Virus record (IMG/VR): IMGVR_UViG_3300013772_000004
DNA: 64,000 nucleotides
From: an uncultured virus (IMG/VR IMGVR_UViG_3300013772_000004)
Lineage: Duplodnaviria > Heunggongvirae > Uroviricota > Caudoviricetes
Reading direction: 5' to 3' (one strand)
Below the pieces are notes generated by a model that worked only from the letters and a program-made list of their open reading frames with translations, was not told the DNA's origin and ran no database searches. The translations under genes and the position numbers were made by a program. Position 1 is the stretch's first letter, and each line of letters opens with the position of its first letter. Shown here one piece after another: positions 13,830 through 56,571 of the stretch.

Positions 13830-14115
13830 CTGCTTGGGTCGGGACTCGCCTACTTACCTTGTGATCCTGACCCGTTCACGGTAACCCCTCGTAATGAGCT
13901 CGCTTGCTTGGGTTATTGGCCTGCTTGGGTACCGCGCAAACGCCCAGGCTTTGGCCCGGGTGGCAACCGGAATTCTACTGTAAAGCCTACCCCCCATTTC
14001 AGTTAAGGGGGTTAAGTAAGTTATGCAAACCCGCGCAGTCGCTGGACTATCTCTTACTTAGGGGAGGAGTTAGGAGAGCTCCAGGTTAAGCAACCCAAGC
14101 AGCTCGCACTCCTCA

Positions 14116-19531: not shown

Positions 19532-19883
19532 GAAGCAGTACGGTGATCCTCATACGACACACGGTATGTGCAGAACTCCTGAGTATGTTTCATGGTGTGC
19601 GATGAAGAATCGTGTTGATCTTATTTCTTCTAAGTCTTACTCTAACTATGGAGGACGTGGGATTAGATACTGTGAGCGATGGCAGAAGTTTGAGAACTTC
19701 TATGCTGACATGGGTCCACGCCTTGATGGTATGACTCTTGATCGTATCGATAGTAATGGTAACTACGAGCCATCCAACTGCCGCTGGGCTACTCGCACTG
19801 AGCAGAATTTAAACAGAAGATCCTTACGATGCAGCATCTGTGGATCAGTCAATCATAATAGGAGAACCTGTGCTGACCGATGA
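19521..19883 (+). CDS. HNH homing endonuclease with zinc knuckle
   Basis: YGGRGI...TLDRIDSNGNYEPSNCRWAT; low GC. Confidence 0.88.
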   Translation: MGRKKQYGDPHTTHGMCRTPEYVSWCAMKNRVDLISSKSYSNYGGRGIRYCERWQKFENFYADMGPRLDGMTLDRIDSNGNYEPSNCRWATRTEQNLNRRSLRCSICGSVNHNRRTCADR

Positions 19884-20757
19884 CTTCTACGATTATCTCA
19901 AGAAACGTGACTCCATTCGTATTCGTAGAGCATACGGTCTGCCTCGTGAGCAGTGGACAGACGATCCAATTCTTCAGAAATATAAGTTCACGAATGTCCG
20001 TCGTCAGGACGACTGGACTACCCGCATGCTCGTAGACAGGTTCTACGATCGTGACGCCACCGACCAGAACAAGTTTCTCAACTGCGTTCTCGGTCGCTTC
20101 TTCGGTCAGTTCGAGACTCTTCAAGATCTCGGCTTTCAGTACGATCCAGCAGACATTCCGACGAACGTTCGTGACATGGTGGCCCGGAGGCAGGCTGCCA
20201 GGAAGTCAGTCTTCACTGGTTCGTACATCGTGCCAAACTGTGGGTCCGATCTACCAAAGCACGAGGTCGTGATCCGGATCGTCGACGAGTGCCGGACGTG
20301 GTTCAGGAAAGTGCGAGACGACATCTGGGGCGTCACTCCCATGCAAGACGTCGTGAAGTCTCTCGTTCGTAACGTCAACGGTATGGGATCTTTCATGGCT
20401 AAGGAGGTACTCCTCGATGTTAAGCTGATGACGAGTTGGCAGCCGTCTGACTGGAGCACCTGGACACCGATGGGGCCGGGGGCACGGCGCGGCGCCGCAC
20501 GTGTCGCAGGAGACGGCACGCTGCTCTCGCCGCTCTCCGAGGCTAAGGCCCTGGCGGTAGCGCAGCAGTTGTACGAGTCGCGTACGTCTCTCTGGCCGAG
20601 CCTCTTCGTATTCGATCATGCCGACGGTATCCGTACCACTGAGAGAGTACCAGATCTCGAACTCTGCGACATTCAGTTCGCTCTCTGTGAGTATGATAAG
20701 ATGTGGCGAGTTCGTCAGGGTGGACGAGCTAAGACATTATTCAGGCCTCGCAAATAA
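19870..20757 (+). CDS. aGPT-Pplase1 / 5-hmdU DNA kinase-type helical (HhH-like) enzyme
   Basis: R..G.P...WTDDPILQKYKFTNVRRQDD; GSFMAKEVLLD; GPGARRG; LCEYDK. Confidence 0.82.
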   Translation: MLTDDFYDYLKKRDSIRIRRAYGLPREQWTDDPILQKYKFTNVRRQDDWTTRMLVDRFYDRDATDQNKFLNCVLGRFFGQFETLQDLGFQYDPADIPTNVRDMVARRQAARKSVFTGSYIVPNCGSDLPKHEVVIRIVDECRTWFRKVRDDIWGVTPMQDVVKSLVRNVNGMGSFMAKEVLLDVKLMTSWQPSDWSTWTPMGPGARRGAARVAGDGTLLSPLSEAKALAVAQQLYESRTSLWPSLFVFDHADGIRTTERVPDLELCDIQFALCEYDKMWRVRQGGRAKTLFRPRK

Positions 20758-21549: not shown

Positions 21550-22335
21550 ATGACGAACTCCGTAAGGTACTACATTCCCACGCGCGGTCGTGTGGGGAAG
21601 CAGCTCACCCTAGAGAACCTCCCGGTTGGGGTTCGTCATCTAGTCACTCTAGTCTGTCCCGAAGATGAGGTGAACGGTCATCTCGGTGCGGGATTCGATC
21701 ATGTGGACTGCCGTGTCGTCGCACAGCCACCGGAGATCCAGACCATCGGCCAGAAGCGCGAGTGGATCTTCAAGACGCTGGCAGCCGACGACGGCGTGGA
21801 CTTCGCCTGGCAACTCGACGACGACCTGACACTCAAGACCCTCGGCCCGGGACAGCTCTTCAAGAAGTCGCAGAACCTGCCGGACCAGACACTCCAGTGG
21901 TTCCAGGAGACCGAGCCCAGACTCCGCGAGGAGTATCCGGTCCTCGGTCTCGGCACGAGCTACTTCGCTCCCAAGGGCGGCGTCCGCGATAACTACCATC
22001 TGGGCTTCGCGTGGGGCATGAACCGCGCAGCCATGGGCGCTCTCCAGATGAACCGGATGGACGTCTTCGAGGACATCGACTTCACCCTGCAGATGCTGCG
22101 CAAGGGGTTCAAGATCGGCGTCTGCTACGACGTGGTCGTCGACCAGAAGCAGCCCGACGCTCCGGGCGGTGTGACCGGCGAGCGCACTCCCGAGACCATT
22201 CAGCGCGACGTTCTACGCCTCATGAAACTCCACGACGGCATCGTCTCGATGAAACCGCTGAGGTCCGGAGCGCATCCGGCAGCGATCACTCGTGTCAACT
22301 GGATGAAGGCTGCCAAAGAGGGCGGTCTTCGGTAG
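21550..22335 (+). CDS. TET-associated (GREB1/base-J-type, GT-A) glycosyltransferase 1
   Basis: YIPTRGR, KREWI, QLDDDL, EDIDFTLQML..G and PGG motifs. Confidence 0.8.
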   Translation: MTNSVRYYIPTRGRVGKQLTLENLPVGVRHLVTLVCPEDEVNGHLGAGFDHVDCRVVAQPPEIQTIGQKREWIFKTLAADDGVDFAWQLDDDLTLKTLGPGQLFKKSQNLPDQTLQWFQETEPRLREEYPVLGLGTSYFAPKGGVRDNYHLGFAWGMNRAAMGALQMNRMDVFEDIDFTLQMLRKGFKIGVCYDVVVDQKQPDAPGGVTGERTPETIQRDVLRLMKLHDGIVSMKPLRSGAHPAAITRVNWMKAAKEGGLR

Positions 22336-22389
22336 TACCACGGCGCTCTTTTTCCTTACCCGTCTGAACAAGCAATCTCGGAGCAATCT

Positions 22390-23187
22390 ATGGACATGTC
22401 AGTCGTCATCCCGTCGAAGGGGCGCATGGGCGCTCAGTACACCATCGGCAATCTACCAGAGGACTGGTGCGAGCGGGTGCATCTCGTCGTGGACGAGTCT
22501 GACGCCTGTGAGGTACCGCAGTACGATCTCCGCGGCGCCACGGTACACGTACACCCGCCCGACATCGACACTATCGCCAAGAAGAGGCAGTGGATCGTCG
22601 AGAACCACGCGCGCTTCGGCTCGCCGAAGATCGTCATGCTGGACGACGACCTGAAGTTCTCGGTGCGTAGGCCCGGTGGGGACTACACGAGTCTCTTCAA
22701 GCCGACGGACGAGGAGTTGTCTGTCGCCTTCTACACCCTCGAGCTGTACCTCGACACCTACGTTCACGCCGGATGGTCCATGCGTCAGGGCAACAACCAG
22801 TGCGAGGACGACACCGTCGAGAACGCTCGCATGTGCTTTGCTCTGGGCTACCGATGCGACTGGATCATGCAGATGGTCGAGAACGGGTTCGTGGAGATGA
22901 ACCGTGTGTCGGTCCGAGAGGACATGGACATGACTCTTCAACTCCTGCGTGCCGGCCGGCCGAACCACGTAGACTTCACCGTCGCCGTCGATCAGGTCAA
23001 GGGGTTCGCAGCTCCTGGTGGCTGCACCGACGAGCGTACCCTGGAGGTGTCCGACGCGGAGGCACTCCGTCTCGCCGAGCTGCATCCGGGCCTGGTGCGC
23101 GTGGTGGACAAGGAGTACGAGGGCTCACCCATGCGAAAAGAGGTGGTCGTCAGCTGGAAAAAGGCGTTCAAGCAGGCTAGGGTGTAG
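22390..23187 (+). CDS. TET-associated-type glycosyltransferase 2 (paralog)
   Basis: IPSKGR, KRQWI, MLDDDL, EDMDMTLQLL..G and APGGC motifs. Confidence 0.82.
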   Translation: MDMSVVIPSKGRMGAQYTIGNLPEDWCERVHLVVDESDACEVPQYDLRGATVHVHPPDIDTIAKKRQWIVENHARFGSPKIVMLDDDLKFSVRRPGGDYTSLFKPTDEELSVAFYTLELYLDTYVHAGWSMRQGNNQCEDDTVENARMCFALGYRCDWIMQMVENGFVEMNRVSVREDMDMTLQLLRAGRPNHVDFTVAVDQVKGFAAPGGCTDERTLEVSDAEALRLAELHPGLVRVVDKEYEGSPMRKEVVVSWKKAFKQARV

Positions 23188-23909: not shown

Positions 23910-24664
23910 CATTCTGGAAGAACGACTGGGGCGGACCCGGTCTGGCTACGATCGTCCTGGCGTGCGGCGAGTCTCGACGTTTCCAGAACTTCGGCTACGA
24001 GACGCCCAAGCAGTACATCCAGTTCGAGATCGACCACGCGATGGGATCGCCGCGCTATCTTGAGAACTTCATGTGCGAGAACGTACTGGCTGGTCTCAGC
24101 ACTCCGACGATCGTGACCACCGTAGGTCTCGAGAAGCACCACGAGTACCTTCTCCGTGTGGCGAACAACACACTGATGGTGCCGTCCAGCAGAGGACAGG
24201 CGCAGACCGCTCTACACAAGTTCGACGCTCTCGATACTCTCGAGTGCTACACCGACGCTCTGATCGTCAACTGCGACAACGGGTTCGCGCCCGGAGTGCT
24301 GGACCGACTCGTGGAGCGTGGTCGCGGTGCGAACTGCATCGCTGTACTGACATTCGAGACTCTCGAGAGCGAGGAGACACGCTGGAGCTTCGTCGACGAC
24401 CATCCATTCTTCACCACGACCGGAGAGAAACAGCACGTATCCAGCTGTACTCGCGCCATCGCTGGTGCATACTACGTGCCCCGTCGCCTGTTTAAGGAGT
24501 TCCGTGACTCGCTGTATGCGACGACCGTTAACCCCTCCGGGCACGAGCCCTATATCAGTCACGCGCTTCGAGGCGTCGCGGGAAAGAAACTGTCGGTGGG
24601 TATGTATCGCGCAGAGTTTTACGATTGGGGAACGCCGGAGTCCTTCAAGGAGTTTATCAGGTGA
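23906..24664 (+). CDS. Sugar-phosphate nucleotidyltransferase (GT-A NTP_transferase)
   Basis: VLACGESRRF...PKQ, IVNCD and WGTPE motifs. Confidence 0.82.
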   Translation: MTFWKNDWGGPGLATIVLACGESRRFQNFGYETPKQYIQFEIDHAMGSPRYLENFMCENVLAGLSTPTIVTTVGLEKHHEYLLRVANNTLMVPSSRGQAQTALHKFDALDTLECYTDALIVNCDNGFAPGVLDRLVERGRGANCIAVLTFETLESEETRWSFVDDHPFFTTTGEKQHVSSCTRAIAGAYYVPRRLFKEFRDSLYATTVNPSGHEPYISHALRGVAGKKLSVGMYRAEFYDWGTPESFKEFIR

Positions 24665-25764
24665 ATGTCATTCGAGTTCGCAACGTACACGCTGCTCTGC
24701 CGTTGGCGATGCAGATTCTCAAGACCGTCGGAGTCAAGACCGACAGTCGCAACGGTGCCGTCAGGCAGGCCGTCGGTCCAGTGACGACGCTGTACGAGCG
24801 CCCACTGGAGCGGGTGATGTTCTGGCCTCAGCGCGACGCCAACCCGTTCTTCCACTTCTTCGAGTCGCTGTGGATGCTTGGCGGGCGTAACGACGTCGAG
24901 AGCGTCAGGCGCTTCGCCGGCAACATGGAGAACTATAGCGACGACAAGCAGACATTCTGGGGAGCGTACGGATACCGATGGCGCAGGGGAATGTCTTCCG
25001 ACGCTGACGCCGGCTCTGGGGTACATGATCAACTGAGGATCGTAGCTGACCTGCTTCGCAAGAACCCGCTGGATCGCCGCTGCGTTCTGCAGATGTGGGA
25101 CGGCGTCAGCGACCTCGCTCGCGACGGTAAGGACGTTCCGTGCAACACTACCGCCACCTTCCAGCGATGCCCGGAGACGGGTAGGCTCGACCTGGTGGTC
25201 TTCTGTCGCTCGAACGACATCGTGTGGGGCTGCTACGGCGCCAACGCGGTTCAGTTCTCGACGCTCCTGGAGTACGTGGCGTTCAGGGCCGGGATGACTC
25301 CCGGTACCTACAGCCAGGTCTCAGTCAACTGGCACGGGTACGACAAGACGTTCGATCCCCTGTGGGACAAGTTCGACGTGGGGCTGACTCCTGGCGACAT
25401 CAGCGAGTACGTCAGCGCACACACTCCCTACGATGTCTCGTCGGCCGTCAAGCCATACCCGCTGATCTCCAAGGGTAGCGACGCCAACGAGTGGGACCAA
25501 GACCTCAACCGGCTGCTCAACCACAAGGGTCGATGCCCGGTAGAGGGGCGATGGAGGGACCCGTTCTGGGAGGCCGTCACCCTGCCCATCCTCCGGGCAC
25601 ACGACAGTCACAAGGAGGGCCGGACCGAGAACGCGATGGCTCAGGTTCAGGAGTGTCAGGCGACCGACTGGCGCCTCGCCTGCTATCAGTGGCTGGAGCG
25701 CAGGTTTCTCAGGCAGACCAAGGCGGCGGACGACGGCGTGGAGTACCCGGAGGCACTGCGATGA
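24661..25764 (+). CDS. Thymidylate-synthase-fold enzyme, likely dUMP hydroxymethylase
   Basis: RDANPFFH, KDVPCN and RSNDIVWGCYGAN motifs; Asn at the specificity position indicates dUMP rather than dCMP. Confidence 0.85.
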   Translation: MNVIRVRNVHAALPLAMQILKTVGVKTDSRNGAVRQAVGPVTTLYERPLERVMFWPQRDANPFFHFFESLWMLGGRNDVESVRRFAGNMENYSDDKQTFWGAYGYRWRRGMSSDADAGSGVHDQLRIVADLLRKNPLDRRCVLQMWDGVSDLARDGKDVPCNTTATFQRCPETGRLDLVVFCRSNDIVWGCYGANAVQFSTLLEYVAFRAGMTPGTYSQVSVNWHGYDKTFDPLWDKFDVGLTPGDISEYVSAHTPYDVSSAVKPYPLISKGSDANEWDQDLNRLLNHKGRCPVEGRWRDPFWEAVTLPILRAHDSHKEGRTENAMAQVQECQATDWRLACYQWLERRFLRQTKAADDGVEYPEALR

Positions 25765-38319: not shown

Positions 38320-38594
38320 AGAACAAACGGCTTGTCTAGGGACGGCTGCCCTGGAGGCGTGGTGATGCGGATCTGAAACGGCGTGTAGGTCGGGAGCACA
38401 CCGGCGTAGTGACCCGTGGCCGCGTAGTAGATCGTTTGATCGCAGTAGTGCAGTCTCGCGATCTCGGTATATGGAGTCCATGGTCCCTCCTCAGTGCCCT
38501 TGCAGACACGATGGTAGCCGTCCTCCTCACGAGTCTCGTGGACTACTGGCCGAGGGTGGTTGTTCCCCCGCTTGACGTAGTGCGTGTTGGGCAT
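38316..38594 (-). CDS. Leaderless early protein
   Basis: ATG lies 5 nt after the promoter -10 element. Confidence 0.7.
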   Translation of the reverse strand: MPNTHYVKRGNNHPRPVVHETREEDGYHRVCKGTEEGPWTPYTEIARLHYCDQTIYYAATGHYAGVLPTYTPFQIRITTPPGQPSLDKPFVL

Positions 38595-38599
38595 GCCCT

Positions 38600-38628
38600 A
38601 CAGTGGCCACTCCACACTCTCGCCGCAA
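38600..38628 (-). promoter_or_regulatory. Early promoter P1
   Basis: TTGCGG-N17-CACTGT. Confidence 0.7.
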
Positions 38629-40131: not shown

Positions 40132-40671
40132 TTACGGCTGTGAGCCTTGACGCGCACCTCCTCGCGCCGTACGCGACGGTACCCCCAGCCGCTCTCTTCG
40201 CGGAGCTTTAGGCGGGCGAGGCGCTTGAGCAGCTCCTCCCTCCGCAGCTTGAATACCGACTTCAGGATCTGTTCCACTCGCTTGTCTTCGCTCACTAGTA
40301 GCCTCCCACTGGTTATGGTCTCTCTTGCCAATCAGCCCCTGGGCATGCAGACGGTACAGGGCACTTCTCAGCGTATTGTAGTTCGGGATCCGGCACGCCT
40401 CCTTTATCTCCACGCCGCCCCACGCTCCACGGTGGTTCAGGAGGAAGACGCGGATGCGGCGCGTGGCCGGCTGCCGGATGTCTACCGCCCACTCGCGCAG
40501 GATTGCCCTGCGGTGGGGTAGATGAATTAGGTCCCACAGGTAGTCCGCCTCGCGTAGAGTGAAGCGGTCGTCCGGCTCCATGCGAGCCATGGCGACGTAC
40601 TTGCGGAGCATCCCCAGGTAGTCCAGCCTCTCGAACGGCTCGGGCTCGCCGGTGGTTACTGGTGCGGGCAT
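40132..40671 (-). CDS. Leaderless early protein with winged-helix-like segment
   Basis: EIKEACRIPNYNTLRSALYRLHAQGLI; ATG 6 nt after -10. Confidence 0.6.
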   Translation of the reverse strand: MPAPVTTGEPEPFERLDYLGMLRKYVAMARMEPDDRFTLREADYLWDLIHLPHRRAILREWAVDIRQPATRRIRVFLLNHRGAWGGVEIKEACRIPNYNTLRSALYRLHAQGLIGKRDHNQWEATSERRQASGTDPEVGIQAAEGGAAQAPRPPKAPRRERLGVPSRTARGGARQGSQP

Positions 40672-40677
40672 GGTTGC

Positions 40678-40706
40678 AAGCTAGTGCCGCCCCGTTCTCA
40701 CCGCAA
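40678..40706 (-). promoter_or_regulatory. Early promoter P2
   Basis: TTGCGG-N17-TAGCTT. Confidence 0.75.
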
Positions 40707-40729
40707 CGGGCGAGGACGCGTTAGTTGGG

Positions 40730-41937: not shown

Positions 41938-42004
41938 GATTGTGTAGCCTTCTGCCCCGGTGGGGCTGTTACCGTTTTGCGTGGCGGGGTTGCCTTGCCC
42001 TACC

Positions 42005-42033
42005 ACGGTAGGCTTTACCAGGCCGTACCGCAA
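42005..42033 (-). promoter_or_regulatory. Early promoter P3
   Basis: TTGCGG-N17-TACCGT. Confidence 0.7.
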
Positions 42034-42072
42034 GGCCCCTGGAGAGCTTTACGGTGCCGCGCGGTACACTGC

Positions 42073-43009: not shown

Positions 43010-43224
43010 TTGACCATGCTCAGGAGGTAGGTGAGGATCTGCGCCGGGGTCGCGTCGCGCGGACCCGCGTTGTGTCCATTGACCTGAAGCTGGAGCGGCG
43101 CACCGAGAACGATGTAGCCGTAGACTTCCTCCTCCCCGCAGGAGATGGCGACGCTGCCGTCGTCCTGGCGCGTCAGTGTGAGCTGTGGTTGGGGTTCTTG
43201 GTGAGACTGCTTGTTGGTGGCCAT
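43006..43224 (-). CDS. Leaderless early protein
   Basis: ATG 6 nt after -10. Confidence 0.65.
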   Translation of the reverse strand: MATNKQSHQEPQPQLTLTRQDDGSVAISCGEEEVYGYIVLGAPLQLQVNGHNAGPRDATPAQILTYLLSMVK

Positions 43225-43230
43225 ACACGC

Positions 43231-43259
43231 AAGGTAGGGCCGTGCGGCGCACCCCGCAA
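43231..43259 (-). promoter_or_regulatory. Early promoter P4
   Basis: TTGCGG-N17-TACCTT. Confidence 0.75.
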
Positions 43260-44322: not shown

Positions 44323-44694
44323 CTACTTATTGTCGTTCTTGACGACCAGCACGATCTGCTCGGTCCCCTTCTTCATGTGGAACCCGAAGCCGCGCTTGTC
44401 GCTCATCCAGCGGAGCAGCGCCTTGGCGTCGTGGTGGCCCATGTTGATCCGGTCGAAGCTCTTCTGGATCTCGGCGAGGGTGGCGCCCTCCTTGCCGCGC
44501 TCGCGCAGAAGAAGCAGCGCGCACTCGATGGTGGTGTCCTTGCGCGGCTCCCGCTGGAGATCGGGGTTGGCGGGCAGGTCCGTCCACGGCATGGTGCGGG
44601 CGATCTTGGCCTTCGCCTCTTTCTTGTCGCCTGCGGTCAGCTTCTTGGTGGCGGTGGTGGTGGAGGCCGTGGAGGTTGCGAGTGATGCGGTCAT
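44323..44694 (-). CDS. DUF3489-like wHTH protein
   Basis: PRKDTTI...LL....EGATLAEIQ...H...LLRW...RGFG. Confidence 0.7.
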   Translation of the reverse strand: MTASLATSTASTTTATKKLTAGDKKEAKAKIARTMPWTDLPANPDLQREPRKDTTIECALLLLRERGKEGATLAEIQKSFDRINMGHHDAKALLRWMSDKRGFGFHMKKGTEQIVLVVKNDNK

Positions 44695-44744
44695 ATGGAT
44701 GGTTCCTTCTTGGTTCGGGCCGGTTGTTTGCTTGGCCTAGTTAC

Positions 44745-44773
44745 AGTGTGTGGCCGGCAAGTAATCACCGCAA
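44745..44773 (-). promoter_or_regulatory. Early promoter P5
   Basis: TTGCGG-N17-CACACT; leadered, AAGGA RBS. Confidence 0.7.
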
Positions 44774-46052: not shown

Positions 46053-46394
46053 TCACAGCGAGGCCACCATCATGTCCACGTGACAGCCCTGGCGCTGAAC
46101 CCGCTGGTTGTCGTTCAGCTGCACGCTGGTCACCAGCGTGAACAGGGCCACGCAGTACACCTGATCGAACATGGGCGATCCGATGCCGATCCACTGCACG
46201 TCGCTCCACTGGAAGTAGGACCAACCCGCCTCCTCGCTGGTGTTGATCCACGCGGGCGGCTCCTGCGACTCGCCCGGAAGCTCGTAGTCCCGGAGTGGGT
46301 TGAGATCCAGGCTGCGGTCACCGCACGGGTACGACTCGCCATCCCGAATCCAGTGCTGGAGGTTCTGTAGTGTGATTGCTTGTTGGCTGGGCAT
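46053..46394 (-). CDS. Leaderless early protein
   Basis: ATG 6 nt after -10. Confidence 0.65.
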   Translation of the reverse strand: MPSQQAITLQNLQHWIRDGESYPCGDRSLDLNPLRDYELPGESQEPPAWINTSEEAGWSYFQWSDVQWIGIGSPMFDQVYCVALFTLVTSVQLNDNQRVQRQGCHVDMMVASL

Positions 46395-46400
46395 GCTACC

Positions 46401-46429
46401 AAGGTACGCACGCAGGCACGCCCGTACAA
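46401..46429 (-). promoter_or_regulatory. Early promoter P6
   Basis: TTGTAC-N17-TACCTT. Confidence 0.75.
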
Positions 46430-47387: not shown

Positions 47388-47591
47388 TCACTGGTGCGAC
47401 CTCACGTGGGCCACTGCCTCGCTACTCAGCACGCAGGACTCGAAGTCCTTGCGATCCATGGGGTACTCCGCGCCGCATACCGGGCACACGGAGACCGGCA
47501 GTACCTCTCCACGGGGCCCGCGCTTCTGCTTGTGGTAGGGAACTCCGAAGCTGGTGTCACCGGACGGTGGGTTTGCTTGTTGGTTGGGCAT
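47388..47591 (-). CDS. Leaderless early Zn-finger protein
   Basis: CPVC...H...H; ATG 6 nt after -10. Confidence 0.65.
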   Translation of the reverse strand: MPNQQANPPSGDTSFGVPYHKQKRGPRGEVLPVSVCPVCGAEYPMDRKDFESCVLSSEAVAHVRSHQ

Positions 47592-47597
47592 GTGTGC

Positions 47598-47626
47598 AGT
47601 GTGGCAACGCGCGTTGCTCACCGCAA
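47598..47626 (-). promoter_or_regulatory. Early promoter P7
   Basis: TTGCGG-N17-CACACT; CTCACC-N6-GGTGAG inverted repeat over the -35. Confidence 0.75.
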
Positions 47627-47959: not shown

Positions 47960-48231
47960 AGTGTCACCTCTAGTAGACGTGAGTCGATGAGGCACCAGGT
48001 TCTGGTGAATCTACCGAAGATCACGCAGCGGCACTCGGCCACGTGTACCTGGCTGGGTCTGCACTCCACGCACTCCATCTCGAAGGATTCAGCGTTGCCC
48101 CACCTTATCAGCACGTGCTCCGACAGATCGAAGCCCGGATGGTCTTGCTGCCAGACGTCCAGGCCGACGGCCGCGTCGTCCGGGAGATCGGATGCGGAGA
48201 GCATGGTGGGCGGCGGCACGTAGGGCGCCAC
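47956..48231 (-). CDS. Early Cys/His paralog family member
   Basis: SDLPDDAAVGLDVW...DLSEH...FEMECVEC...H...CRC. Confidence 0.72.
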   Translation of the reverse strand: MAPYVPPPTMLSASDLPDDAAVGLDVWQQDHPGFDLSEHVLIRWGNAESFEMECVECRPSQVHVAECRCVIFGRFTRTWCLIDSRLLEVTL

Positions 48232-48734
48232 TACGTACCCTCCGAGGAGCCGCTCGGAGCCCGTGGCGGGCTCTCTTGGGGTGCGGGCGCTGCCGGTACG
48301 GTGCGCGCGGCCGTCTCTGGCGTCTCTGCGCTGCGCTCCCTCACTCGCCGGTCCATCAGGTACTGTCTCTCCACCAGCACTCCCATCTGCATATAGGTCG
48401 ACTCGTACCTCCGGGCGTCGTCCGCCGGTAGATCCCACATCGTCAGATCGTCGGTGCTGTCGGCGCGCGGTCTCAGTAGGGAGTAGCGCCGCAGCTCCCA
48501 TCCGATCGTGGGACCCAGATACTGTGCGATCCTGAGACGGTTGCGTCCGTTCGCCAGGTAGAGGGCCGGAGGACTGTCGTGGAAGTGGAGGGTCGTGAGT
48601 AGACGCTCGCCGGTGTCGTGGTCAACGCCCGGAGGCCAGAGACTCATGAACTCCGGCAGACGATCCGCCACGTCGCGGTCGAAGAGCACGGCGGCGTCGT
48701 CCGCGAGTAGCGAGAGGTCGAGGGGTACAGTCAT
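48231..48734 (-). CDS. Early protein, DA.V..DRD subfamily
   Basis: LADDAAVLFDRDVADRLP. Confidence 0.6.
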   Translation of the reverse strand: MTVPLDLSLLADDAAVLFDRDVADRLPEFMSLWPPGVDHDTGERLLTTLHFHDSPPALYLANGRNRLRIAQYLGPTIGWELRRYSLLRPRADSTDDLTMWDLPADDARRYESTYMQMGVLVERQYLMDRRVRERSAETPETAARTVPAAPAPQESPPRAPSGSSEGT

Positions 48735-48763
48735 CGGTGGACCGAGTTGGAGGGAAAGTCGGG

Positions 48764-48792
48764 CGTATGGCAACGCCCGTTACTCACCGCAA
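48764..48792 (-). promoter_or_regulatory. Early promoter P8 (degenerate copy of P7)
   Basis: TTGCGG-N17-CATACG; spacer nearly identical to P7. Confidence 0.5.
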
Positions 48793-49345
48793 TGTGTGAG
48801 GATGGTTTCGTGAGGTTCTTGAGGTTCTAGAGGGTTGGAGGAGTGCGTGATGCCCGGAGAGCAACGGAGTAGCACCCGCGCGCGTAGCCGGTGTTCCTGA
48901 TCGAGTCGTTGCGCGCGTCGCCCGTCACAGTGCCGACGAACTGACACACGAGGTACCCGAGCTGACAGGTCGTGACGCACACGATAGACTCGACCCGGAA
49001 GAGGTAGCCCTGGATCGTGACGACGTCACCCACGAGAAGTGACCCACGGTACTCGTCGCTCACGACGTCTCCTCTTCCGCTTCCGGCTGGCGCTCCTCGG
49101 CCAGTCGGCACGCGGCCTCCTCGCGCTCGTCCGCCCGGCACTCGGCACAGATCTCGATCTCGTCGCCTATCAGCAGGCTGACGCAGGTGGCGCAGTGGGT
49201 CTCAGGGCGAGTACCTGGATCCGATCCTGGAGTAGACGAGCCGTAGTCTGGCAGACACCTGATGACGCGTGCTGGGCACTCGTCTCCAGTCTGAGTCTTC
49301 CGCGGACTGTGATCGTCACGACCGCATATGTGGCAGTGGGTCTTC

Positions 49346-49766
49346 TCATTCATATCGTGGCCTCTCGGTGGTGACGTGGGCGCCGTGGGTCAGCTCGTAC
49401 ACCCACTCCAGGTCCTCGCCGTGCGGCGTGGCGCAGCTGAAGCGGCTGCGAGAAGGACGATCCTGGCCCATCTCGTAGACTGATTCGACGTGTGCCCGGA
49501 AGGCGGCGACGAGGGCTCGTTCCTCGTCAGTGGCCGGAACGGGAGGCCCACAGTCCTCGATCTCGAAGTCCCGCTCGCCCTCGCCGTCCGCGCCCTCTCG
49601 CCAGAACCAGTGCGTGCGTGTGGGCTGGAGCGCCCGGAAGGGAAGGCTGGGACCGGCGAGCTCTCGGCGGTCGTAGTACCAGCCACCCTCCTCCGGGCCA
49701 CCGTAGTGGCGAGAGACGGAGTAGAGGGTGAGGTGGGCGTCGGTGGGGCGGGTGGTCTCGCTCACT
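49346..49766 (-). CDS. Conserved hypothetical phage protein
   Basis: YGGPEEGGWYY motif and RPRYE C-terminus; start approximate. Confidence 0.65.
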
Positions 49767-50006
49767 GGTCGTTCTCCTGGACGAATGTAGTGACCTGGTG
49801 TGCGGTCGGCAGCGTGCGGGACTCGTGGCAGCACGGGCACTCCACGGTGGCCGTGACGATTCTATCGTCGTGCTCGTCCAGCCAGGTGTCACGGGCGTGG
49901 TCATAGAGGGCGAGACAGACGTTGTCCGGACAGTCACACAGAAAGACTAGGCCGAGGCTCTCGGCGTACTGAAGTCCGGACAGAGGTGGGGGCGTGGGGT
50001 AGCTAC

Positions 50007-50231
50007 TCACTTCACACTGTCCCACGCGCGGCGCAGGGCCGGCCGCATCGGAATCTTCCTGAAGGCGAGACCCAGCTTCACGCGGCGCAGTGCCTCGCGA
50101 TCCGTGTTGTCCACGTGCTTGGGGAGGGGATCGGCGACGCACCAGTCGTCCGTACAGCCGACGTGCGGATTGTTGTCCTCGTAGAGCTGCGGGCGGGAGC
50201 AGCCTGGCCTGTTCGCGGGGTTGTTGGGCAT
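50007..50231 (-). CDS. Leaderless early protein
   Basis: ATG 6 nt after -10. Confidence 0.65.
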   Translation of the reverse strand: MPNNPANRPGCSRPQLYEDNNPHVGCTDDWCVADPLPKHVDNTDREALRRVKLGLAFRKIPMRPALRRAWDSVK

Positions 50232-50237
50232 GTATAC

Positions 50238-50266
50238 ACTGTGGTGCCGGTAAGTAGTCACCGCAA
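50238..50266 (-). promoter_or_regulatory. Early promoter P9
   Basis: TTGCGG-N17-CACAGT; TCACCGC-TT-GCGGTGA inverted repeat. Confidence 0.75.
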
Positions 50267-50482
50267 GCGGTGAGGAGTAGTTCGTGAGGCGTTAGAGCGC
50301 CTCGATCTCCACTACCGTGAACGGTGCGTTCGGGATCAGGTTGAGGTGGGCCCAGAGGTGGGCGGCTGCCCTGTTGGTGAAGTGGCCGCGCGTCTGGCTG
50401 GTCCACGTGGTTCCCTCCAGGTCGTTCCACTCGTTCGTGAGAGCGGGTGTGGCGCGCGGCAGTACGAGCGTGTAGTAGGTGC

Positions 50483-50788
50483 TCATCGGAGGTTCCTTAC
50501 CATGATCCAGCCGTTGGGCTGACCCGGCCGGTGCAGTGTCGAGACCGCGCGCTCGCTGCGGTACATCACGCACTCGCAGTTCGGATCGTGGCTGCCGAAC
50601 GGGCGTGCGACGCACACAGGATCCTCGAGAACGAAGCAGTCGGTGAAGGTGCCGAAGGTGCGCAGTTTGTGCTCGGAGATCGACAGCCAGCGTCGTCCAG
50701 ACAGGAACACGTCGAGCTCGACCTGAGCGACGCCCGGGAGGTCAGCGATGCCGACCTCGCGGCTGCCGTGATGGTAGGTGTTGGGCAT
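50483..50788 (-). CDS. Leaderless early Cys/His paralog family member
   Basis: ADLPGVAQVELDVF...SEH...FVLEDPVC...H...CEC. Confidence 0.75.
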   Translation of the reverse strand: MPNTYHHGSREVGIADLPGVAQVELDVFLSGRRWLSISEHKLRTFGTFTDCFVLEDPVCVARPFGSHDPNCECVMYRSERAVSTLHRPGQPNGWIMVRNLR

Positions 50789-50794
50789 GCACAT

Positions 50795-50823
50795 ATAGTG
50801 TGCGCGCGTGGTTCTCAGTACAA
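50795..50823 (-). promoter_or_regulatory. Early promoter P10
   Basis: TTGTAC-N17-CACTAT. Confidence 0.75.
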
Positions 50824-51370: not shown

Positions 51371-51867
51371 CAGAGTAGATCTCCTACGCGATCGATCGCG
51401 ATGTCGAACAGATCGACGAGCTGCGATCCGACTGGATCCTTCGTGTCGACCATACTGCGAAGACGACGAGAGAGGATCGCCACGTCGCGAAGACGCGTGA
51501 CGGTGTCGAGAGGCTGATCCTTGGCCCGGAGGCAGCTGGGACAGACACGAAGAGCGAACGCAATCTCGTCTCTGTTGTCGCGACTCACGAACGTGATCGT
51601 GTCGTCCTCGTGAACGACGGCCGTGAGAACCGCGTCCTGATTAGAGTGTACGAATCTCTGGGCGTCGATCACCGATACGCGCTTTCCTCCCTCGGGAATC
51701 GTTAGCTTTCTTCCCAACTGCTGGAAGTGATGACGTCGGAATCCGATGTCGGTGTTCGTAGGCGTAAACAGGAGTTGCTGGATGGGGGACGATGGGAGTG
51801 TCACGATCTGTACCGTATCACGTCCCAGGACAGCGGTGTTAGTTCGCCGTCGTGCCGGAATCTTCAC
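51370..51867 (-). CDS. Hypothetical protein
   Basis: 165-aa ORF coupled to the next gene. Confidence 0.55.
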   Translation of the reverse strand: MKIPARRRTNTAVLGRDTVQIVTLPSSPIQQLLFTPTNTDIGFRRHHFQQLGRKLTIPEGGKRVSVIDAQRFVHSNQDAVLTAVVHEDDTITFVSRDNRDEIAFALRVCPSCLRAKDQPLDTVTRLRDVAILSRRLRSMVDTKDPVGSQLVDLFDIAIDRVGDLL

Positions 51868-51883
51868 TCATCGTATCGTTGGT

Positions 51884-52018
51884 CGGAATCCTCTCGACTG
51901 AGTCGTTGGGGCTGAATGAGGTAAGTGACTGGAATGTGGTGGGGTGGGCCGGAATCCTCTCGCCTGATAGAGTGGGCCGGAATCCTCTCGTGGGGCGAAA
52001 TGGGCCAGAATCTTCTCG
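51884..52018. repeat. Short direct repeats (TGGGCC)GGAATCCTCTCG
   Basis: Copies at 51884, 51944, 51972 and 52001; the last three are ~28 bp apart. Confidence 0.8.
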
Positions 52019-52390
52019 CCTCGGATCCTTGGCCAGAAGGTAAGTAGCAGGTTAAGTGAGGTATTCCTGAGTGATGCCCGGAGGTTAGGTCGTGTTTGGT
52101 CGAAAAACTCGGCTGCAAATTCCAGGCGACAAAGCGCCAGGCTATGCGCCTACGGGACAGCAAAGCTGTCTGGAGACAAAAGCCTACAGTAGTATTTATT
52201 TATTCTTATTAAGTAAGATAGTATTGAGTAATAATTCCCCCGGTTTAGCGTGAATGGCTTGGATGTCGCTGCATCAGACGATAGGCGTTGTTGAGTGCAG
52301 CTCTCCTCGCACTCGCGTATACACCCTCTGGGCCATGAGCCCGCGCAGTTCACTAGTTCAACAGTTCATCGGAAGATCATGAGATGAGCT

Positions 52391-52711
52391 CTTCTCCACT
52401 CCTCACCCCTCCCTCCTCTCCCCTCCCCGCGCGCCGAGGAACGAGGAGAGAGGAAGATGGAGAGAGGAAGATGGACGAGGAGAGATGGACGAGGAGAGAG
52501 GAAGATGGATGAGGAGAGACGAGAAGGAAGAGGGAGGAAGAAGAGGAGAGAGGAAGACGGAGAGAAGAGAGAAGAGGAAGAAGAAGAAGAGGAAGAAGAG
52601 ATCTCCGGTCCTCCGGCTCTCCGGCTCTCCTCCCGCGCGGCTCTCCGCGGGGGGGGGGGGGGGGGGGGGGGGCGCCACGAGGCCCCCCCGGGAGCGGCCC
52701 CNNNNNNNNNN
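52391..52711. other. Polypyrimidine/polypurine tract, poly-G run and N gap
   Basis: CT tract, then GAGGAGAGAGGAAG repeats, a G run and 10 N. Confidence 0.8.
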
Positions 52712-52854
52712 GGCACCCTACCATGGCACGGCACGTGCTAGGCACCCTACCATGGCACGGCACGTGCTAGGCACCCTACCATGGCACGCCACGTGCTAGG
52801 CAACCTACCATGGCACGCCACGTGCTAGGCAACCTACCATGGCACGCCACGCTA
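52712..52854. repeat. 29-bp tandem repeat, about 5 copies
   Basis: GGCA(C/A)CCTACCATGGCACG(G/C)CACGTGCTA, head-to-tail with no spacers. Confidence 0.92.
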
Positions 52855-53239
52855 GCCGATGCGCACGTGGTACACCGTTTGCTCGGTCGGCGCTATGGCA
52901 TGTGGCGTGCTATGGCGCGGTACCCTGCCGATGCGCGCGCGCAGCTTCGCGACGCCACGCGCGGCGCACGCCAGCCCCACGCCGAGCAGCACAGCCGCAT
53001 GGTACACCACACCACACAACGCCAACGCCAACGCCAACGCGCTACTACGCGCTAGGGCGCCCACTAGCGCCACCATCGGCCCATGCAGTCGCACCCTGCA
53101 TACCCCATATAACAGGGCTCGTGCGTACGCACGTGTGGCAAGGCATAGTCTAGCCAACCGTCGAGCCTACGTGCCGGTACTGCACACGCCAGCCTATCGG
53201 CCGCCATGCGTGCCAGTGCTGCTACCGTAGCAGCCGACA

Positions 53240-53461
53240 CTAGCGCACCCCATCGTGCGATGCGACCATGGCCCACGTGGTACCAGTGCCGATGCTGTAG
53301 ACAGCGCGCGCAATGTGGCATGCGGTAATGTCGCGGTTCACCAGCGCGCACATTTCGGCGACACTGGTACCGCAGTACTGCGCTGGCAGTGTGGCAGTAG
53401 CGGCCTTGACAGGCTTACCACCGATACGACGACCGACCATGGTGCGAAGCGATTGAAGCAT
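53240..53461 (-). CDS. Small protein in the TC/GA-poor region
   Basis: Preceded by a mirror copy of the element upstream of 53741. Confidence 0.4.
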   Translation of the reverse strand: MLQSLRTMVGRRIGGKPVKAATATLPAQYCGTSVAEMCALVNRDITACHIARAVYSIGTGTTWAMVASHDGVR

Positions 53462-53740
53462 GCATGACCATAGTGCTAGTGGCGTGCCACGGTATGGTAC
53501 ACGGTAGAACGGCCTGCCAGGCCGTTACAGGCCGTTCTAGGCTGTTATGCCATGGGGGTCCAGGCCCCACCCTGGGGTGCAGACCCCCACCCTATAAAGC
53601 AGTGTGGTATTAGGGGGTTATACCAGGGTATGCGGGGTTAGCTATGGGGGGCCAGACCCCACCCTACCACGCTATGCCTATCAGGTTACGCTAGGTTACC
53701 TGCTTAATACCGTGGCACGGCACTAGCATTATACCCAAAC

Positions 53741-54133
53741 ATGCCTACTAACAACCTGTCCACCCTGCCCACGTCTACCTCTAACACATCGAAGGCCCTT
53801 GCCAAGGGCGGTACCGCTGCTAAGGCCCTTGCGGCGCCTACCACGGCAGTCAAGGCCGATAGCAGCACCACAGCTGTGCACGCCGAGTTCAGCTACCCAG
53901 CTAAGGCTACCACGTCTAAGACCACGTGGGTGCCAAAGGCTGGTACGGTGCCAGGTAACCTCGTTATTGCGCTTAATGCAGGCCCGATTACCATGGTGCA
54001 GGCTATGGCGCTTATTGCGCCAGGTGCTGCTAAGGTTGGCCATCAACACAAGGTCGCTGCACTATGCAAATGGTTGGCCGCTAACCGTAGTTATGGTACA
54101 CAATACCAAGGTGGTATGCTTAGCAAGGTCTAA
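53741..54133 (+). CDS. Divergent DUF3489-like wHTH protein, nearly Asp/Glu-free
   Basis: PKAGTV...H.V..L.KW...RSYG matches the three paralogs. Confidence 0.7.
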   Translation: MPTNNLSTLPTSTSNTSKALAKGGTAAKALAAPTTAVKADSSTTAVHAEFSYPAKATTSKTTWVPKAGTVPGNLVIALNAGPITMVQAMALIAPGAAKVGHQHKVAALCKWLAANRSYGTQYQGGMLSKV

Positions 54134-54147
54134 GCCATAGTAGTAAG

Positions 54148-54236
54148 GGGTTAGCAGCCCCCATACCAGGCTGCTAACCGGCTGCTAACCCATCGCTACC
54201 CCACGGGTACCCCACAGTTACCCCAGCGGGTTTTTG
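54148..54236 (+). terminator. Hairpin(s) and U tract after 53741
   Basis: GGTTAGCAGCC/GGCTGCTAACC stem; later CCC..GGG-TTTTT. Confidence 0.55.
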
Positions 54237-54384
54237 TGTGGTCTCGGCGCAGCCTCACCCAGGACCCGCAAAAATTTTTCCCATAAAACAGAGCTCCTCC
54301 CCAAGCACTGATTACTTGCCCACCCCTGAGCCCTCCACCTTGCATCCCCGCCCATCAACCATGAAATCCTAGAACCTAACCACC

Positions 54385-54714
54385 ATGTCAAGAATCAGCC
54401 TCCAGGTCACCAGCATCCTCAACGAGTTCGACCCCAAGGATCCGACCAAGATCGTGCGGCGAACCCTCGTCACCGCCCTCCACTCCCCCGTCAACGAGCT
54501 GAACCTCGGCGAGATCACCGAGGAGCGGGCTAAGGCGATCACGCCCGGGATGGAAATCTCCTGCGAGCTCACCCCCGACTTCACCAACATCGACGCGGGT
54601 CAGACGGATCAGCAGAAGGCGACCGAGGCGGCGAACAAGGTGCTCGACGAGGAGAAGGAGACGCTCGCGAAGGCGACGGTCGCCCCTCGCGCCAAGTCCC
54701 CCACCAGGCACTAG
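54385..54714 (+). CDS. Hypothetical protein
   Basis: Strongly biased codon usage. Confidence 0.65.
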   Translation: MSRISLQVTSILNEFDPKDPTKIVRRTLVTALHSPVNELNLGEITEERAKAITPGMEISCELTPDFTNIDAGQTDQQKATEAANKVLDEEKETLAKATVAPRAKSPTRH

Positions 54715-54920: not shown

Positions 54921-55166
54921 ATGAAGCGAGTCAGGATCTCCAGCGACGGCGTCAGTACCCAGGTGCGAGTCGGATCGCAGCTGATGCACGACGTTCAGGA
55001 GGTCCTGATTCGCCTTCGCCCCTCCGGGCCAGCGGTCGTCACCCTCACGATCCTGGCCGAGCACGTCGAGGTCGACGGACAGGCCGTCCTGAACTTCGGC
55101 GGTGGCGGCACTGAGGAGACAGTCAACCTGCGTGCCGGCAAGTCCAAGAGGCCCGGAACCATATGA
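54921..55166 (+). CDS. Hypothetical protein
   Basis: ORF tiles with neighbours. Confidence 0.5.
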   Translation: MKRVRISSDGVSTQVRVGSQLMHDVQEVLIRLRPSGPAVVTLTILAEHVEVDGQAVLNFGGGGTEETVNLRAGKSKRPGTI

Positions 55167-55666
55167 GCCAACTCGACAGGACGGTCACCTGCTCTCACGT
55201 GTGTCCTCGTCGAGACATGGTGTCCGGCATGCCCCTCTGCGACACCTGGAACGTCGACGAGACCACCGGTCTTCGACACTGTTCCTGGTGCGGCTCGATC
55301 CATCCCGACCAGTTCATGCATCTGGTGCGAACGCACTGCGTACTCACGCCGACGGACAAGGAGTACAAGGTCTACGTCGACGAGACCGTCGCGCGGATCG
55401 TCACCGGCGACACGAACGAGATCGTCACTCCTCCTCACCAGCGCAAGTTCTACTTCCAGCATCTCGGCGTAGCCGACCGCGTGGCGTTCAAGGAACTCCA
55501 CAACGCCGGTCAGCTCTCCATCGGCTATCCGGGCAACTTCTACGTCGTGCCGTACTTCATGGTGCCTCCGAGATCTGCACGACCATCGGAAGTGCAGAGC
55601 TCGTCGGTCCAGAACGAGGTCGCCGATCCACTCACGGGGCTCCTGAGAGGCGAGACCGAGTCGTGA
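55163..55666 (+). CDS. Conserved hypothetical Zn-binding protein
   Basis: CSWCGSIHP...TDK.YKVY...KFYFQH. Confidence 0.6.
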   Translation: MSQLDRTVTCSHVCPRRDMVSGMPLCDTWNVDETTGLRHCSWCGSIHPDQFMHLVRTHCVLTPTDKEYKVYVDETVARIVTGDTNEIVTPPHQRKFYFQHLGVADRVAFKELHNAGQLSIGYPGNFYVVPYFMVPPRSARPSEVQSSSVQNEVADPLTGLLRGETES

Positions 55667-56571
55667 GCGACCAAGTCAAGCCGCCCGAGCCTGCGCTCGC
55701 CTCGATCATGCGTAAGCGGCCGGGGGACGAGCCGCCGGAGCGCGACGAGCGTCTCATGAGACGGATACGAAGTGACCGTATCATGAGTACCCCGGCGCAG
55801 GCGTACCGAGAGGAGACCGCTCAGAGCGATCTCCTCAGGCTCCGAGACGCACCGACCCCTCCTCCGGGCTATCGCTACACCATGGACGGTCGGCTCATCC
55901 CGATCGAGGGTAGCGAGCTGCCGATCACGGACGTCGAGGCACAAGAGCTCTTCTGCGGTGTCATCGAGATCACGGGGAGTATGCGGGCTGCCTGCGACGC
56001 CCTGGGTATCCGCAGCGTGGCGCGCGTGAAGGGCTACCTCATGCGGGACGTCGAGTTCTCCGAGGCGGTCGAGGCGGCGAGCCAGCGGCACAAGGAGTCT
56101 CTATACGCTCACGCCCACAAGCGGGCCACGGTCGGAGTCGAGACGCCCATCTTCGACAAGACGGGGCAGCTCGTGGGGTACGAGACGAAGTACAGCGACT
56201 CTCTTCTCACGCTTCTGCTGAAGCGCCACATTCCGGAGTTCCGCGAGGCGAGTAAGTCTGGAACGACGGTCACGGTCAACAACACCGACAACAGCCAGAA
56301 CGTGCAGATCGACGTCAAGAGTATGACGCGCGCACAGAGAGACGCCATGAGACTCATCCTGACGGATAAGAGCGAGCTTCCGGAGGAGGAGACGGTACCG
56401 GGTACCGTCTCACCCGCAGCTCAGGAACTCTCACGAGTTCTGGAGGTCATCGACGTGGACTCGACGGTCATGGTTCCGCTGCCTCCGGGCGTGAACACGC
56501 CGGAGGGCACGGTCAGCAACGAGGTGCCTCTGTCGATCGACACGATCGTCGACGATCCGGTGGACTCCTGA
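55663..56571 (+). CDS. Terminase small subunit-like protein
   Basis: HTH (AACDALGI); RATVG...KYSDSLL.LLLK motif; upstream of terL. Confidence 0.7.
   Translation: MSDQVKPPEPALASIMRKRPGDEPPERDERLMRRIRSDRIMSTPAQAYREETAQSDLLRLRDAPTPPPGYRYTMDGRLIPIEGSELPITDVEAQELFCGVIEITGSMRAACDALGIRSVARVKGYLMRDVEFSEAVEAASQRHKESLYAHAHKRATVGVETPIFDKTGQLVGYETKYSDSLLTLLLKRHIPEFREASKSGTTVTVNNTDNSQNVQIDVKSMTRAQRDAMRLILTDKSELPEEETVPGTVSPAAQELSRVLEVIDVDSTVMVPLPPGVNTPEGTVSNEVPLSIDTIVDDPVDS

Follow-up and report, generated by a model that had tools for sequence, protein, structure and literature searches.

What would lead a phage to purge one dinucleotide from a kilobase or more of its own genome, genes and non-coding DNA alike, when the same dinucleotide is plentiful everywhere else? 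The question is raised by a 64 kb stretch of phage DNA (61% G+C; IMG/VR record IMGVR_UViG_3300013772_000004), the whole of which we call the window, and by a segment at 52712-54240 in which TC and its complement GA have nearly vanished. The reading that we favour, at about even odds (roughly 0.5), is that T in 5'-TC-3' carries a bulky group in this phage, and that DNA which proteins must read is kept free of TC. Four runs of a single soil-metagenome study contain the stretch, and 13 contigs, up to 72,933 nucleotides (nt) in length, carry the protein encoded in the segment.

TC and GA are excluded from a 1.5 kb island

52702..52711, no strand: scaffold gap of ten N, the sole N run of the window
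52712..54242, no strand: TC/GA-poor island; the assembled part begins at the scaffold gap, and its final long TC/GA-free run stops at 54242

Across the 1,529 nt of 52712-54240 there are 28 TC and 28 GA, an observed/expected ratio (O/E) of 0.31 for each, versus 1.45 (TC) and 1.30 (GA) in the rest of the window; base composition alone would predict about 181 of the two together, where 56 are observed. This bears out the desert that an earlier note on this DNA had described from a hand count of about 2 per 60 nt, as against 10-12 in coding DNA: the computed density is 2.2 per 60 nt, and the coding lines at 28801 and 59521 hold 12 and 10. The depletion also stands in the sliding-window check proposed at the time, once base composition is taken into account. 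Some 425 sliding windows of 300 nt include nine at or below half the mononucleotide expectation, all nine within 52651-54300, and with 500-nt windows the TC/GA minimum (z = -5.3) is the deepest low among the ten strand-symmetric dinucleotide classes.

The trinucleotides tell the same story: the 16 most depleted of the 64 are exactly the 16 that contain TC or GA, the rarest being GGA (0 occurrences), TCC (2), GAG (3) and CTC (4), whilst TCG and CGA survive best and hold 35 of the 56 remaining sites. The other 14 dinucleotides range in O/E from 0.65 to 1.81, with TA at 1.81 (0.68 elsewhere) and CA, TG and GC at about 1.35. The exclusion is specific to TC/GA and strand-symmetric. We considered whether deamination-type mutational decay could have produced it, and rejected this: TT and AA are not raised (TT O/E 0.77 here and 0.61 in the second island described below) and the G+C content is high (62-67%), so that the pattern points to selection, not mutational decay. 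Avoidance of a CRISPR protospacer adjacent motif and of single restriction sites was dropped as well, given that the depletion extends to all 16 trinucleotides.

Among tetranucleotides, GATC occurs 0 times in the island and 538 times elsewhere, and TCGA 2 and 532 times (about 8.6 per kb each elsewhere); CTAG is found 13 times in the island (8.5 per kb) and 65 times elsewhere (1.0 per kb).

The exclusion overrides protein composition

53741..54133, plus strand: gene for a small winged-helix-like protein of 130 amino acids (aa), with 1 Asp and 1 Glu, recognised from homologues, a codon test and a low-confidence model
53240..53461, minus strand: putative gene from the list of open reading frames (ORFs), 73 aa with 2 Asp and 1 Glu, starting at the left arm of an inverted promoter-like module
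44323..44694, minus strand: paralogue outside the island, 122 aa with 8 Asp and 7 Glu, found by hmmsearch with the family profile (E 8.5e-5)

How far does the rule reach into coding sequence? The 130-aa protein has two homologues only among 1.84 billion representatives, P0002 (E 8.7e-25; 142 aa, 2 Asp and 2 Glu) and P0003 (E 2.2e-5; 117 aa, no Asp or Glu), and a 195-aa ORF (P0005) on L013, the metagenome contig described in the next section, again with no Asp or Glu, aligns with the family over its C-terminal, helix-rich part. In these four in-island homologues Asp and Glu together thus make up 2 of 130, 4 of 142, 0 of 117 and 0 of 195 residues, against a mean of 12.1% in 20 reference genes and 15 of 122 in the paralogue outside the island. 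The single Asp and single Glu that had been noticed in the embedded gene are confirmed; of the three paralogues with which it had been compared, we found the one at 44323-44694 and did not detect the other two, and a tblastn search for paralogues returned nothing below E 0.23.

Synonymous positions are bent in the same direction. When codons were redrawn from the phage's own usage (20,000 draws), the gene at 53741-54133 would be expected to hold 39.6 +/- 4.1 TC+GA and holds 16, and the L013 ORF would hold 47.8 +/- 5.3 and holds 0; not one of the 20,000 draws was as low in either case, and two control genes showed ordinary TC/GA. The 73-aa ORF shows a milder shift (17 versus 24.2 +/- 3.0, P 0.013). 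Within each ORF both words are avoided on both strands. The avoidance therefore overrides protein composition, with Asp and Glu purged, and shifts synonymous codon choice.

The 130-aa protein can be called winged-helix-like at low confidence, from an AlphaFold2 model (predicted local distance difference test score, pLDDT, 47.6) in which the predicted order helix-helix-helix-strand-strand is as in a winged helix. Pfam gave no match for the 73-aa ORF, and Pfam and PHROGs no family for the island ORFs; protein-pattern searches found no relatives of the island ORF in viral_contigs or metagenome_contigs, and none of the L013 ORF in viral_contigs. For the paralogue, the best named cluster in the protein atlas is DUF3489 at 0.78, which we treat as a lead only.

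A second island keeps the rule, not the sequence

The island has no second copy within the window, the phage collection holds no DNA similar to it (positions 30000-50000 of the window give a single match there, of 117 nt), and exact island words have 0 matches in viral_contigs. A relative with 66% identity in TerL, L003, has a contig that starts in a homologue of the island's right edge. A pattern built from that edge led to L013, a 1,513-nt contig from another metagenome that belongs to the L003 clade, and the edge motif occurs in L012, L013 and L014. Positions 1-1108 of L013 contain zero TC/GA, against about 121 predicted from base composition; not until 1118 does one appear, and from there on O/E is 1.0-1.4. 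Apart from the 88-nt edge, which is 70% identical, the two islands have no sequence in common. What is kept between them is a rule of composition and not a sequence: with zero TC/GA in L013 and so little shared DNA, the property has been selected, not inherited with the sequence. That the exclusion is absolute in L013 suggests that even a single TC/GA site there is costly. The second island has TG at O/E 1.91 and TA at 1.88.

Could the segment to the right of the gap simply be foreign DNA, mis-joined during scaffolding, as the earlier note had allowed? L013 runs from its island into DNA on the terS side, just as the window's right-hand contig reaches the late genes, and because L013 crosses this junction, such a mis-join is excluded for the right-hand side; the left junction, across the ten-N gap, lies outside that evidence. 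The note's proposal to look for the same deserts in relatives gave a divided answer, with zero TC/GA in 1,108 nt of L013 and no comparable desert in four other phages of the kinase family introduced below.

Assembly breaks off at or within the island in three cases (the window at its gap, L003 at its start, and L013 at its start, inside its island); local tandem repeats are a sufficient cause, and a coverage step or terminal repeat may also be involved. In PaMx11 (L008), the 830 non-coding nt before terS include, at 191-592, that genome's longest runs without TC/GA (64 nt) and without CA/TG (80 nt); taken singly, neither is significant.

The island is built like a control unit

52712..52856, plus strand: five tandem 29-nt repeats, each with TACCATGGCACGSCAC and 0 TC/GA (Tandem Repeats Finder, TRF: period 29, 4.8 copies, 98% matches)
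53458..53744, no strand: divergent control region with 38-nt inverted arms, 53458-53495 and 53707-53744 (82% complementary), each with TACCGTGGCACGSCAC and a start codon at the arm end
54150..54242, plus strand: hairpin or hairpins with a GTTTTTGTGTG run, closing the island (fold z -2.6 in the window and -3.3 in L013; edge kept in L003 and L013)

From its layout, the island looks like a self-contained control unit, with repeated binding sites (predicted), two divergent leaderless starts and a terminator. The sequence TACCGTGGCACGSCAC, present once per arm, is the 16-mer TACCATGGCACGSCAC with G at its fifth position, and all seven sites of this 16-nt motif in the window (five in the repeats, two in the arms) fall inside the island, where 0.17 would be expected. 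The right arm leads to the 130-aa gene and the left arm to the 73-aa minus-strand ORF; the 211-nt spacer that separates the divergent starts is as free of TC/GA as the tandem repeats. Directly past the hairpin and T-run, in L013 as in the window, TC/GA returns to normal.

A scan of 51800-54500 for terminators and for promoters, the latter with a stricter consensus than the expression used below, returned 0 and 0. The 16-nt motif, at 52719-52850, 53479-53494 and 53708-53723, contains TGGCACG-N4-(G/A)TGC or TAGC; its GG-N10-GC spacing is that of sigma54 promoters, and the motif may represent a different promoter class or a regulator site.

Cores of predicted early promoters follow the same rule

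The island is not the only place where TC and GA give way. Outside it, the longest TC/GA-free runs measure 91, 70, 61, 61, 55, 50 and 50 nt; seven runs of at least 50 nt compare with a mean of 0.27 (maximum 2) in 200 first-order Markov simulations, and four of at least 60 nt with 0.035. Six of the seven lie upstream of minus-strand early genes. The five promoter intervals named in the earlier note, of 43-86 nt each, hold 0 TC/GA apiece, and the further stretch it had pointed to, at 13905-14035, holds 3 in 131 nt.

A regular expression written after inspection of these deserts, TTG(CGG|TAC)-N16-18-YAnnnT, finds 11 sites in the window, nine of which head minus-strand early genes, with TTGCGG or TTGTAC, 17 nt and YAnnnT; the other two look like chance matches, one having 16 TC/GA in an equal span. 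The nine are predicted sigma70-like early promoters, seven with leaderless-type starts, in which the -10 hexamer is followed within 7 nt by an ATG (at 6 nt in six of them and at 5 nt in the seventh). They are listed below with the TC/GA count of each 65-nt span, for which the background is 10.6, and with one further stretch.

50759..50823, minus strand: early promoter core and leaderless start, TTGTAC-17-CACTAT-6-ATGCCC; 3 TC/GA
50202..50266, minus strand: early promoter core and leaderless start; 2 TC/GA
47562..47626, minus strand: early promoter core and leaderless start; 2 TC/GA
46365..46429, minus strand: early promoter core and leaderless start; 2 TC/GA
44709..44773, minus strand: early promoter core with leader, upstream of the winged-helix paralogue; 3 TC/GA
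43195..43259, minus strand: early promoter core and leaderless start (ATGGCC); 3 TC/GA
41951..42042, minus strand: early promoter and 5' leader, with a 91-nt TC/GA-free run that no other outside the island matches; 0 TC/GA in 65 nt
40642..40706, minus strand: early promoter core and leaderless start; 3 TC/GA
38564..38628, minus strand: early promoter core and leaderless start; 5 TC/GA, the weakest case in the set
13900..14039, plus strand: TC/GA-poor stretch upstream of the SNF2 helicase gene, with runs of 70 and 40 nt (run list, dinucleotide count)

Aligned on the start of the -35 element, the nine promoters average 0.11, 0, 0 and 0 TC/GA per 10 nt over +10 to +49, versus 1.6 genome-wide, and the flanks are ordinary: 1.0-2.0 per 10 nt upstream, and 0.9-1.7 past about +14 of the transcript. 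In total the cores, from about -25 to +14, contain 4 TC/GA where 44-62 would be expected, with other dinucleotide classes at 0.5-1.7 times expectation. They carry the signature of the island, with CA/TG, GC and TA up and CG down, and since the 17-nt spacers differ between promoters they are not copies of one sequence.

Upstream of the -35 element, CTCCTCACC is present in five of the nine promoters, with the variant CGTCCTCGCCC in one more and neither in the other three (examples at 47627-47640, 50267-50280 and 46430-46443). This element is rich in the words that the core avoids and, with the -35, can form a CTCACC/GGTGAG stem.

The window encodes a probable thymidine hypermodification pathway

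19840..20757, plus strand: 5-hydroxymethyldeoxyuridine (5-hmdU) DNA kinase homologue (PF18723 HMUDK_hel, E 1.6e-38, 133 bits versus a cut-off of 25)
21550..23187, plus strand: two adjacent TAGT-family glycosyltransferase genes, 21550-22335 and 22390-23187 (PF20691, E 2.8e-23 and 1.2e-19; phrog_842)
24625..25764, plus strand: thymidylate-synthase homologue, candidate dUMP hydroxymethylase (PF00303, E 6.8e-18; phrog_5131, E 9.3e-111)

Processes that act on DNA with dinucleotide specificity are few, and one of them is encoded here. A dCMP deaminase, an NT5C-family nucleotidase and a dUTPase lie nearby, which fits a dUMP route, and PhiJL001 has a similar cassette in the same gene order. The ORF at 18845-19531 matches the UDG superfamily at E 0.0043 only, below the cut-off, and also phrog_12275, whose function is unassigned. 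A Pfam scan of 87 ORFs of the window, at the E-value limits used, found no methyltransferase, TET/JBP, DpdA or 5mYOX family; as judged from these family matches, the thymidine pathway is the only recognisable DNA-modification pathway of the window.

Published work lends this pathway a dinucleotide context. For M6, ViI and PhiW-14, one report proposes, from resistant restriction sites, TG or TC as the site converted by the 5-hmdU kinase pathway (PMC6449724), and another gives TG as the main modified site of phage 15599 and as the preferred context in PhiW-14 and phage 15599 (PMC13458397). A T-dioxygenase of phage origin, whose product enters TAGT-type pathways, has a preference for NTC and works best on YTY (PMC13229309). 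As for the consequences, bulky major-groove groups are described, in the introduction of a further paper, as blocking bacterial RNA polymerase at promoters, 5-hydroxymethyluracil (5hmU) as tolerated or stimulatory, and T7 RNA polymerase as little affected by modifications that lie outside the promoter (PMC11550810). A narrow literature search for accounts of regions left unmodified, or of motifs avoided, in hypermodified phages found none, and the papers cited here make no mention of either.

What would the exclusion protect?

How could these pieces fit together? We posit that thymine would be replaced by 5hmU, probably made before replication, and that after replication a subset of the 5hmU would be turned into a bulky derivative by a kinase step to which glycosyl transfer is probably added. 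Which 5hmU is converted would depend on the next base: T in 5'-TC-3' would be modified, above all in the words CTC and TCC. Wherever proteins have to read the genome as it arrives, fully modified, the DNA would then have evolved without TC on either strand and would bear no bulky group. Two kinds of DNA would be kept clean in this way: the nine sigma70-type promoter cores, whose span of about -25 to +14 roughly matches what RNA polymerase covers, and an island of 1.1-1.5 kb by the late/terminase module, with its five plus two 16-nt sites, two divergent leaderless genes and terminator. Such a scheme explains the promoter cores well, and the island fits it as a dense unit of protein-read DNA.

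The place of the island in the genome invites a further step. The plus strand carries the late genes, with the large terminase at 57084, a Mu-type portal and PhiJL001-like tail genes; 14-36 kb is a replication and nucleotide block, and 38-52 kb, on the minus strand, a block of small early genes. With the early block on one side and the late/terminase module on the other, the island adjoins the packaging genes and stands upstream of the minus-strand early genes, every one of which is directed away from it. Most likely it would be read ahead of all other DNA after entry, when no phage function has yet been made, and would be a pre-early control unit; a role as an origin or in packaging is also possible.

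The earlier note had placed the modification on T in TC and held that sites read by proteins are kept unmodified. The kinase, TAGT and thymidylate-synthase genes, the published TG and TC contexts, the NTC preference of the T-dioxygenase and the block to RNA polymerase all lend this indirect support; as a general rule of the kinase family it does not hold, and several considerations weigh against it even here. The complete genomes of Simon, PaMx11 (an M6 relative) and PhiJL001, like the first 50 kb of PhiW-14, show no comparable desert in any dinucleotide class, which confines the arrangement to this small clade. TG/CA is enriched in the islands (O/E 1.35 and 1.36 in the window, and TG at 1.91 in L013), and as TG is the best-documented context for the kinase family, our reading needs a TC-specific phage. 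Beyond about +15 to +25 the early genes carry normal TC/GA, which means that modified DNA must be open to transcription; nor does the promoter argument account for the cleaning of a whole kilobase, coding gene included. The nine promoters are one family, a repeated module and not fully independent cases, and the CA-rich first codons of the leaderless genes could serve translation and not the reading of DNA. Lastly, the exclusion, its conservation, its price in protein composition and the pathway genes are observed here, and from them we infer TC as the modified context, the bulkiness of the group and the function of the island.

Would the same facts be better served by turning the polarity round? 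Perhaps T before A, G or T is the modified and protected base and T in TC stays bare 5hmU or T, in which case TC would be excluded so as to shield the first-read DNA from host restriction or from glycosylases that excise 5hmU. The enrichment of TA and TG in both islands (TA 1.81 and 1.88, TG 1.35 and 1.91) would follow naturally, TG is given as the preferred context in PhiW-14 and phage 15599, and a total lack of TC/GA (0 of about 121) makes more sense if the phage dies from one site left unprotected. We nonetheless find this unlikely: the thymines of the -35 and -10 elements would all be bulky, although bulky groups are reported to block bacterial RNA polymerase at promoters, and the rest of the genome is TC-rich (O/E 1.45), which would leave about 10,000 sites unprotected. 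Another thought is that the selecting agent has nothing to do with the phage's own modification. TC-containing targets are known for nucleases, for cytosine deaminases of single-stranded DNA and for thymidine ADP-ribosyltransferases, and a host or phage enzyme of this kind could impose avoidance wherever DNA is exposed first or becomes single-stranded, as in promoter bubbles and at an origin or leading end. The exclusion holds on both strands and also in non-transcribed DNA, it is strongest around the transcription bubble, and GATC and TCGA, so common in the rest, are nearly absent from the island. Against this, the depletion of all 16 TC/GA trinucleotides is broader than any 3-6 nt target, the excess of TT/AA that TC-to-TT deamination would leave is missing from both of the G+C-rich islands, and the coincidence with a pathway that works at the dinucleotide level would go unexplained, so that we consider such an enzyme an improbable cause.

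A constraint on RNA appears to us very unlikely. It would require island transcripts to be without UC and GA, for example so as to escape a sequence-specific endoribonuclease, and it gains some plausibility from the island's ending exactly at a hairpin and U-run, the end of a transcription unit, and from the presence of two divergent units, which would lend the avoidance a symmetric look; outside these units' transcripts, however, lie the tandem repeats, the 211-nt spacer and the promoter positions from -25 to -1, all equally TC/GA-free, and within each ORF TC and GA are both avoided on both strands. As for a passive by-product or artefact, be it foreign or mis-assembled DNA or the decayed copies of a TC/GA-free repeat, the gap at the island's left, the broken contigs of the relatives and the tandem repeats that fill its first 145 nt all gave reason to consider it, but it is largely refuted and can hardly be credited: the window's right-hand contig and L013 both pass from island into late genes, a paralogue of the island gene lies among the early genes, nine promoters elsewhere show the same avoidance, two islands without sequence similarity have the property in common, and the codon-level tests exclude a by-product of repeats.

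Relation to known systems

Modification by the kinase family in M6, ViI, PhiW-14 and SH-Ab 15599 is the closest parallel to what we propose for T in TC. As here, the kinase of PF18723 is joined by a thymidylate-synthase homologue, and in these phages the modified T is set by the following base, TG or TC. The difference lies in the TAGT glycosyltransferases, which here sit in the cassette, and in the sculpting of the genome around the context, which has not been reported for those phages; no comparable desert was found in PaMx11, PhiJL001 and Simon or in the part of PhiW-14 named above. The T-dioxygenase 5mYOX97, which acts upstream of TAGT-type glycosyltransferases, is likewise T-directed with a TC context and most active on YTY, and the most avoided words of the window's island are TCC/GGA and CTC/GAG; TAGT enzymes are common to both systems, whereas no 5mYOX/TET match is present among the window's 87 scanned ORFs.

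Other likenesses are looser. The first-step-transfer (FST) region of T5 is a stretch of first-entering DNA that is free of restriction sites, and so resembles the island in being local, near early genes and without the words on which an enzyme acts; in a comparison with T5 FST and with the leading end of T7 it is gene order alone that fits, and the island has two divergent promoter-like modules that carry start codons. What is excluded here is a dinucleotide and not a palindrome of 4-6 nt, at the scale of a kilobase and with Asp and Glu codons included. Classical avoidance of restriction sites concerns host targets of 4-8 nt across a whole genome, and does not describe a dinucleotide that is avoided locally and stands at O/E 1.3-1.45 in the rest. 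Vertebrate CpG islands offer an analogy only: they too are linked to promoters and differ from the bulk in the dinucleotide that bears the modification, with the logic reversed in the phage, where the island is without the word, the bulk is rich in it, and selection, as opposed to mutational decay, is indicated.

We see the finding as a variant of local motif avoidance, new as far as our narrow search of the literature shows. Tentatively, and with somewhat less assurance than for the phage itself, it may be extended to others: phages with bulky, dinucleotide-specific hypermodification could shape their genomes so that a modified bulk is broken by islands free of modification (promoter cores, and a kilobase-scale control or leading unit without Asp and Glu), so that both the context of the enzyme and the DNA that proteins can read would be legible from sequence, like CpG islands of a phage kind. 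If true, this would be the first case of a phage hypermodification context predicted from genome sequence alone, and direct evidence that hypermodification has a cost to protein-DNA recognition, paid in rewritten promoters, control sites and protein composition. It would also give a handle in the search for uncultured hypermodified phages, namely kilobase-long dinucleotide-free islands and ORFs free of Asp and Glu; a concrete set of promoters and sites with which to ask how host RNA polymerase handles modified DNA; and a natural experiment on how far a rule at the level of DNA can reshape a folded DNA-binding protein.

Sequence on either side of the island

52385..52640, no strand: polypyrimidine and then polypurine tract, followed by a run of 24 G toward the gap (30.9 TC+GA per 100 nt versus a window mean of 16; TRF)

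To the right, towards the terminase genes, a 489-aa ORF (55102-56571) overlaps 55163-55666 in a different frame, and the terS-like ORF of L003 aligns with its C-terminal part only, so that the small terminase, judged from this alignment, probably starts near 55783.

To the left of the gap, the DNA had been described as the opposite of the island, nearly pure GA/TC, and so it is: a polypyrimidine run of 39 nt is followed by 161 nt (52440-52600) that are 94% purine, and the G run occupies 52649-52672. As assembled at this contig end, the polypyrimidine and polypurine runs at 52389-52475 would fold as a long hairpin, and it is on this hairpin that an Rfam search of 51500-54500 placed its only matches, which are microRNA-like and sub-threshold. 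Further left still, four to five GCCGGAATCCTCTCG-like repeats at 28-nt spacing, rich in TC/GA, occupy 51854-52046 and are followed by 55 nt at 24% G+C (52186-52240); together, the repeats and the AT-rich stretch give 51854-52240 what may be called an origin-like anatomy.

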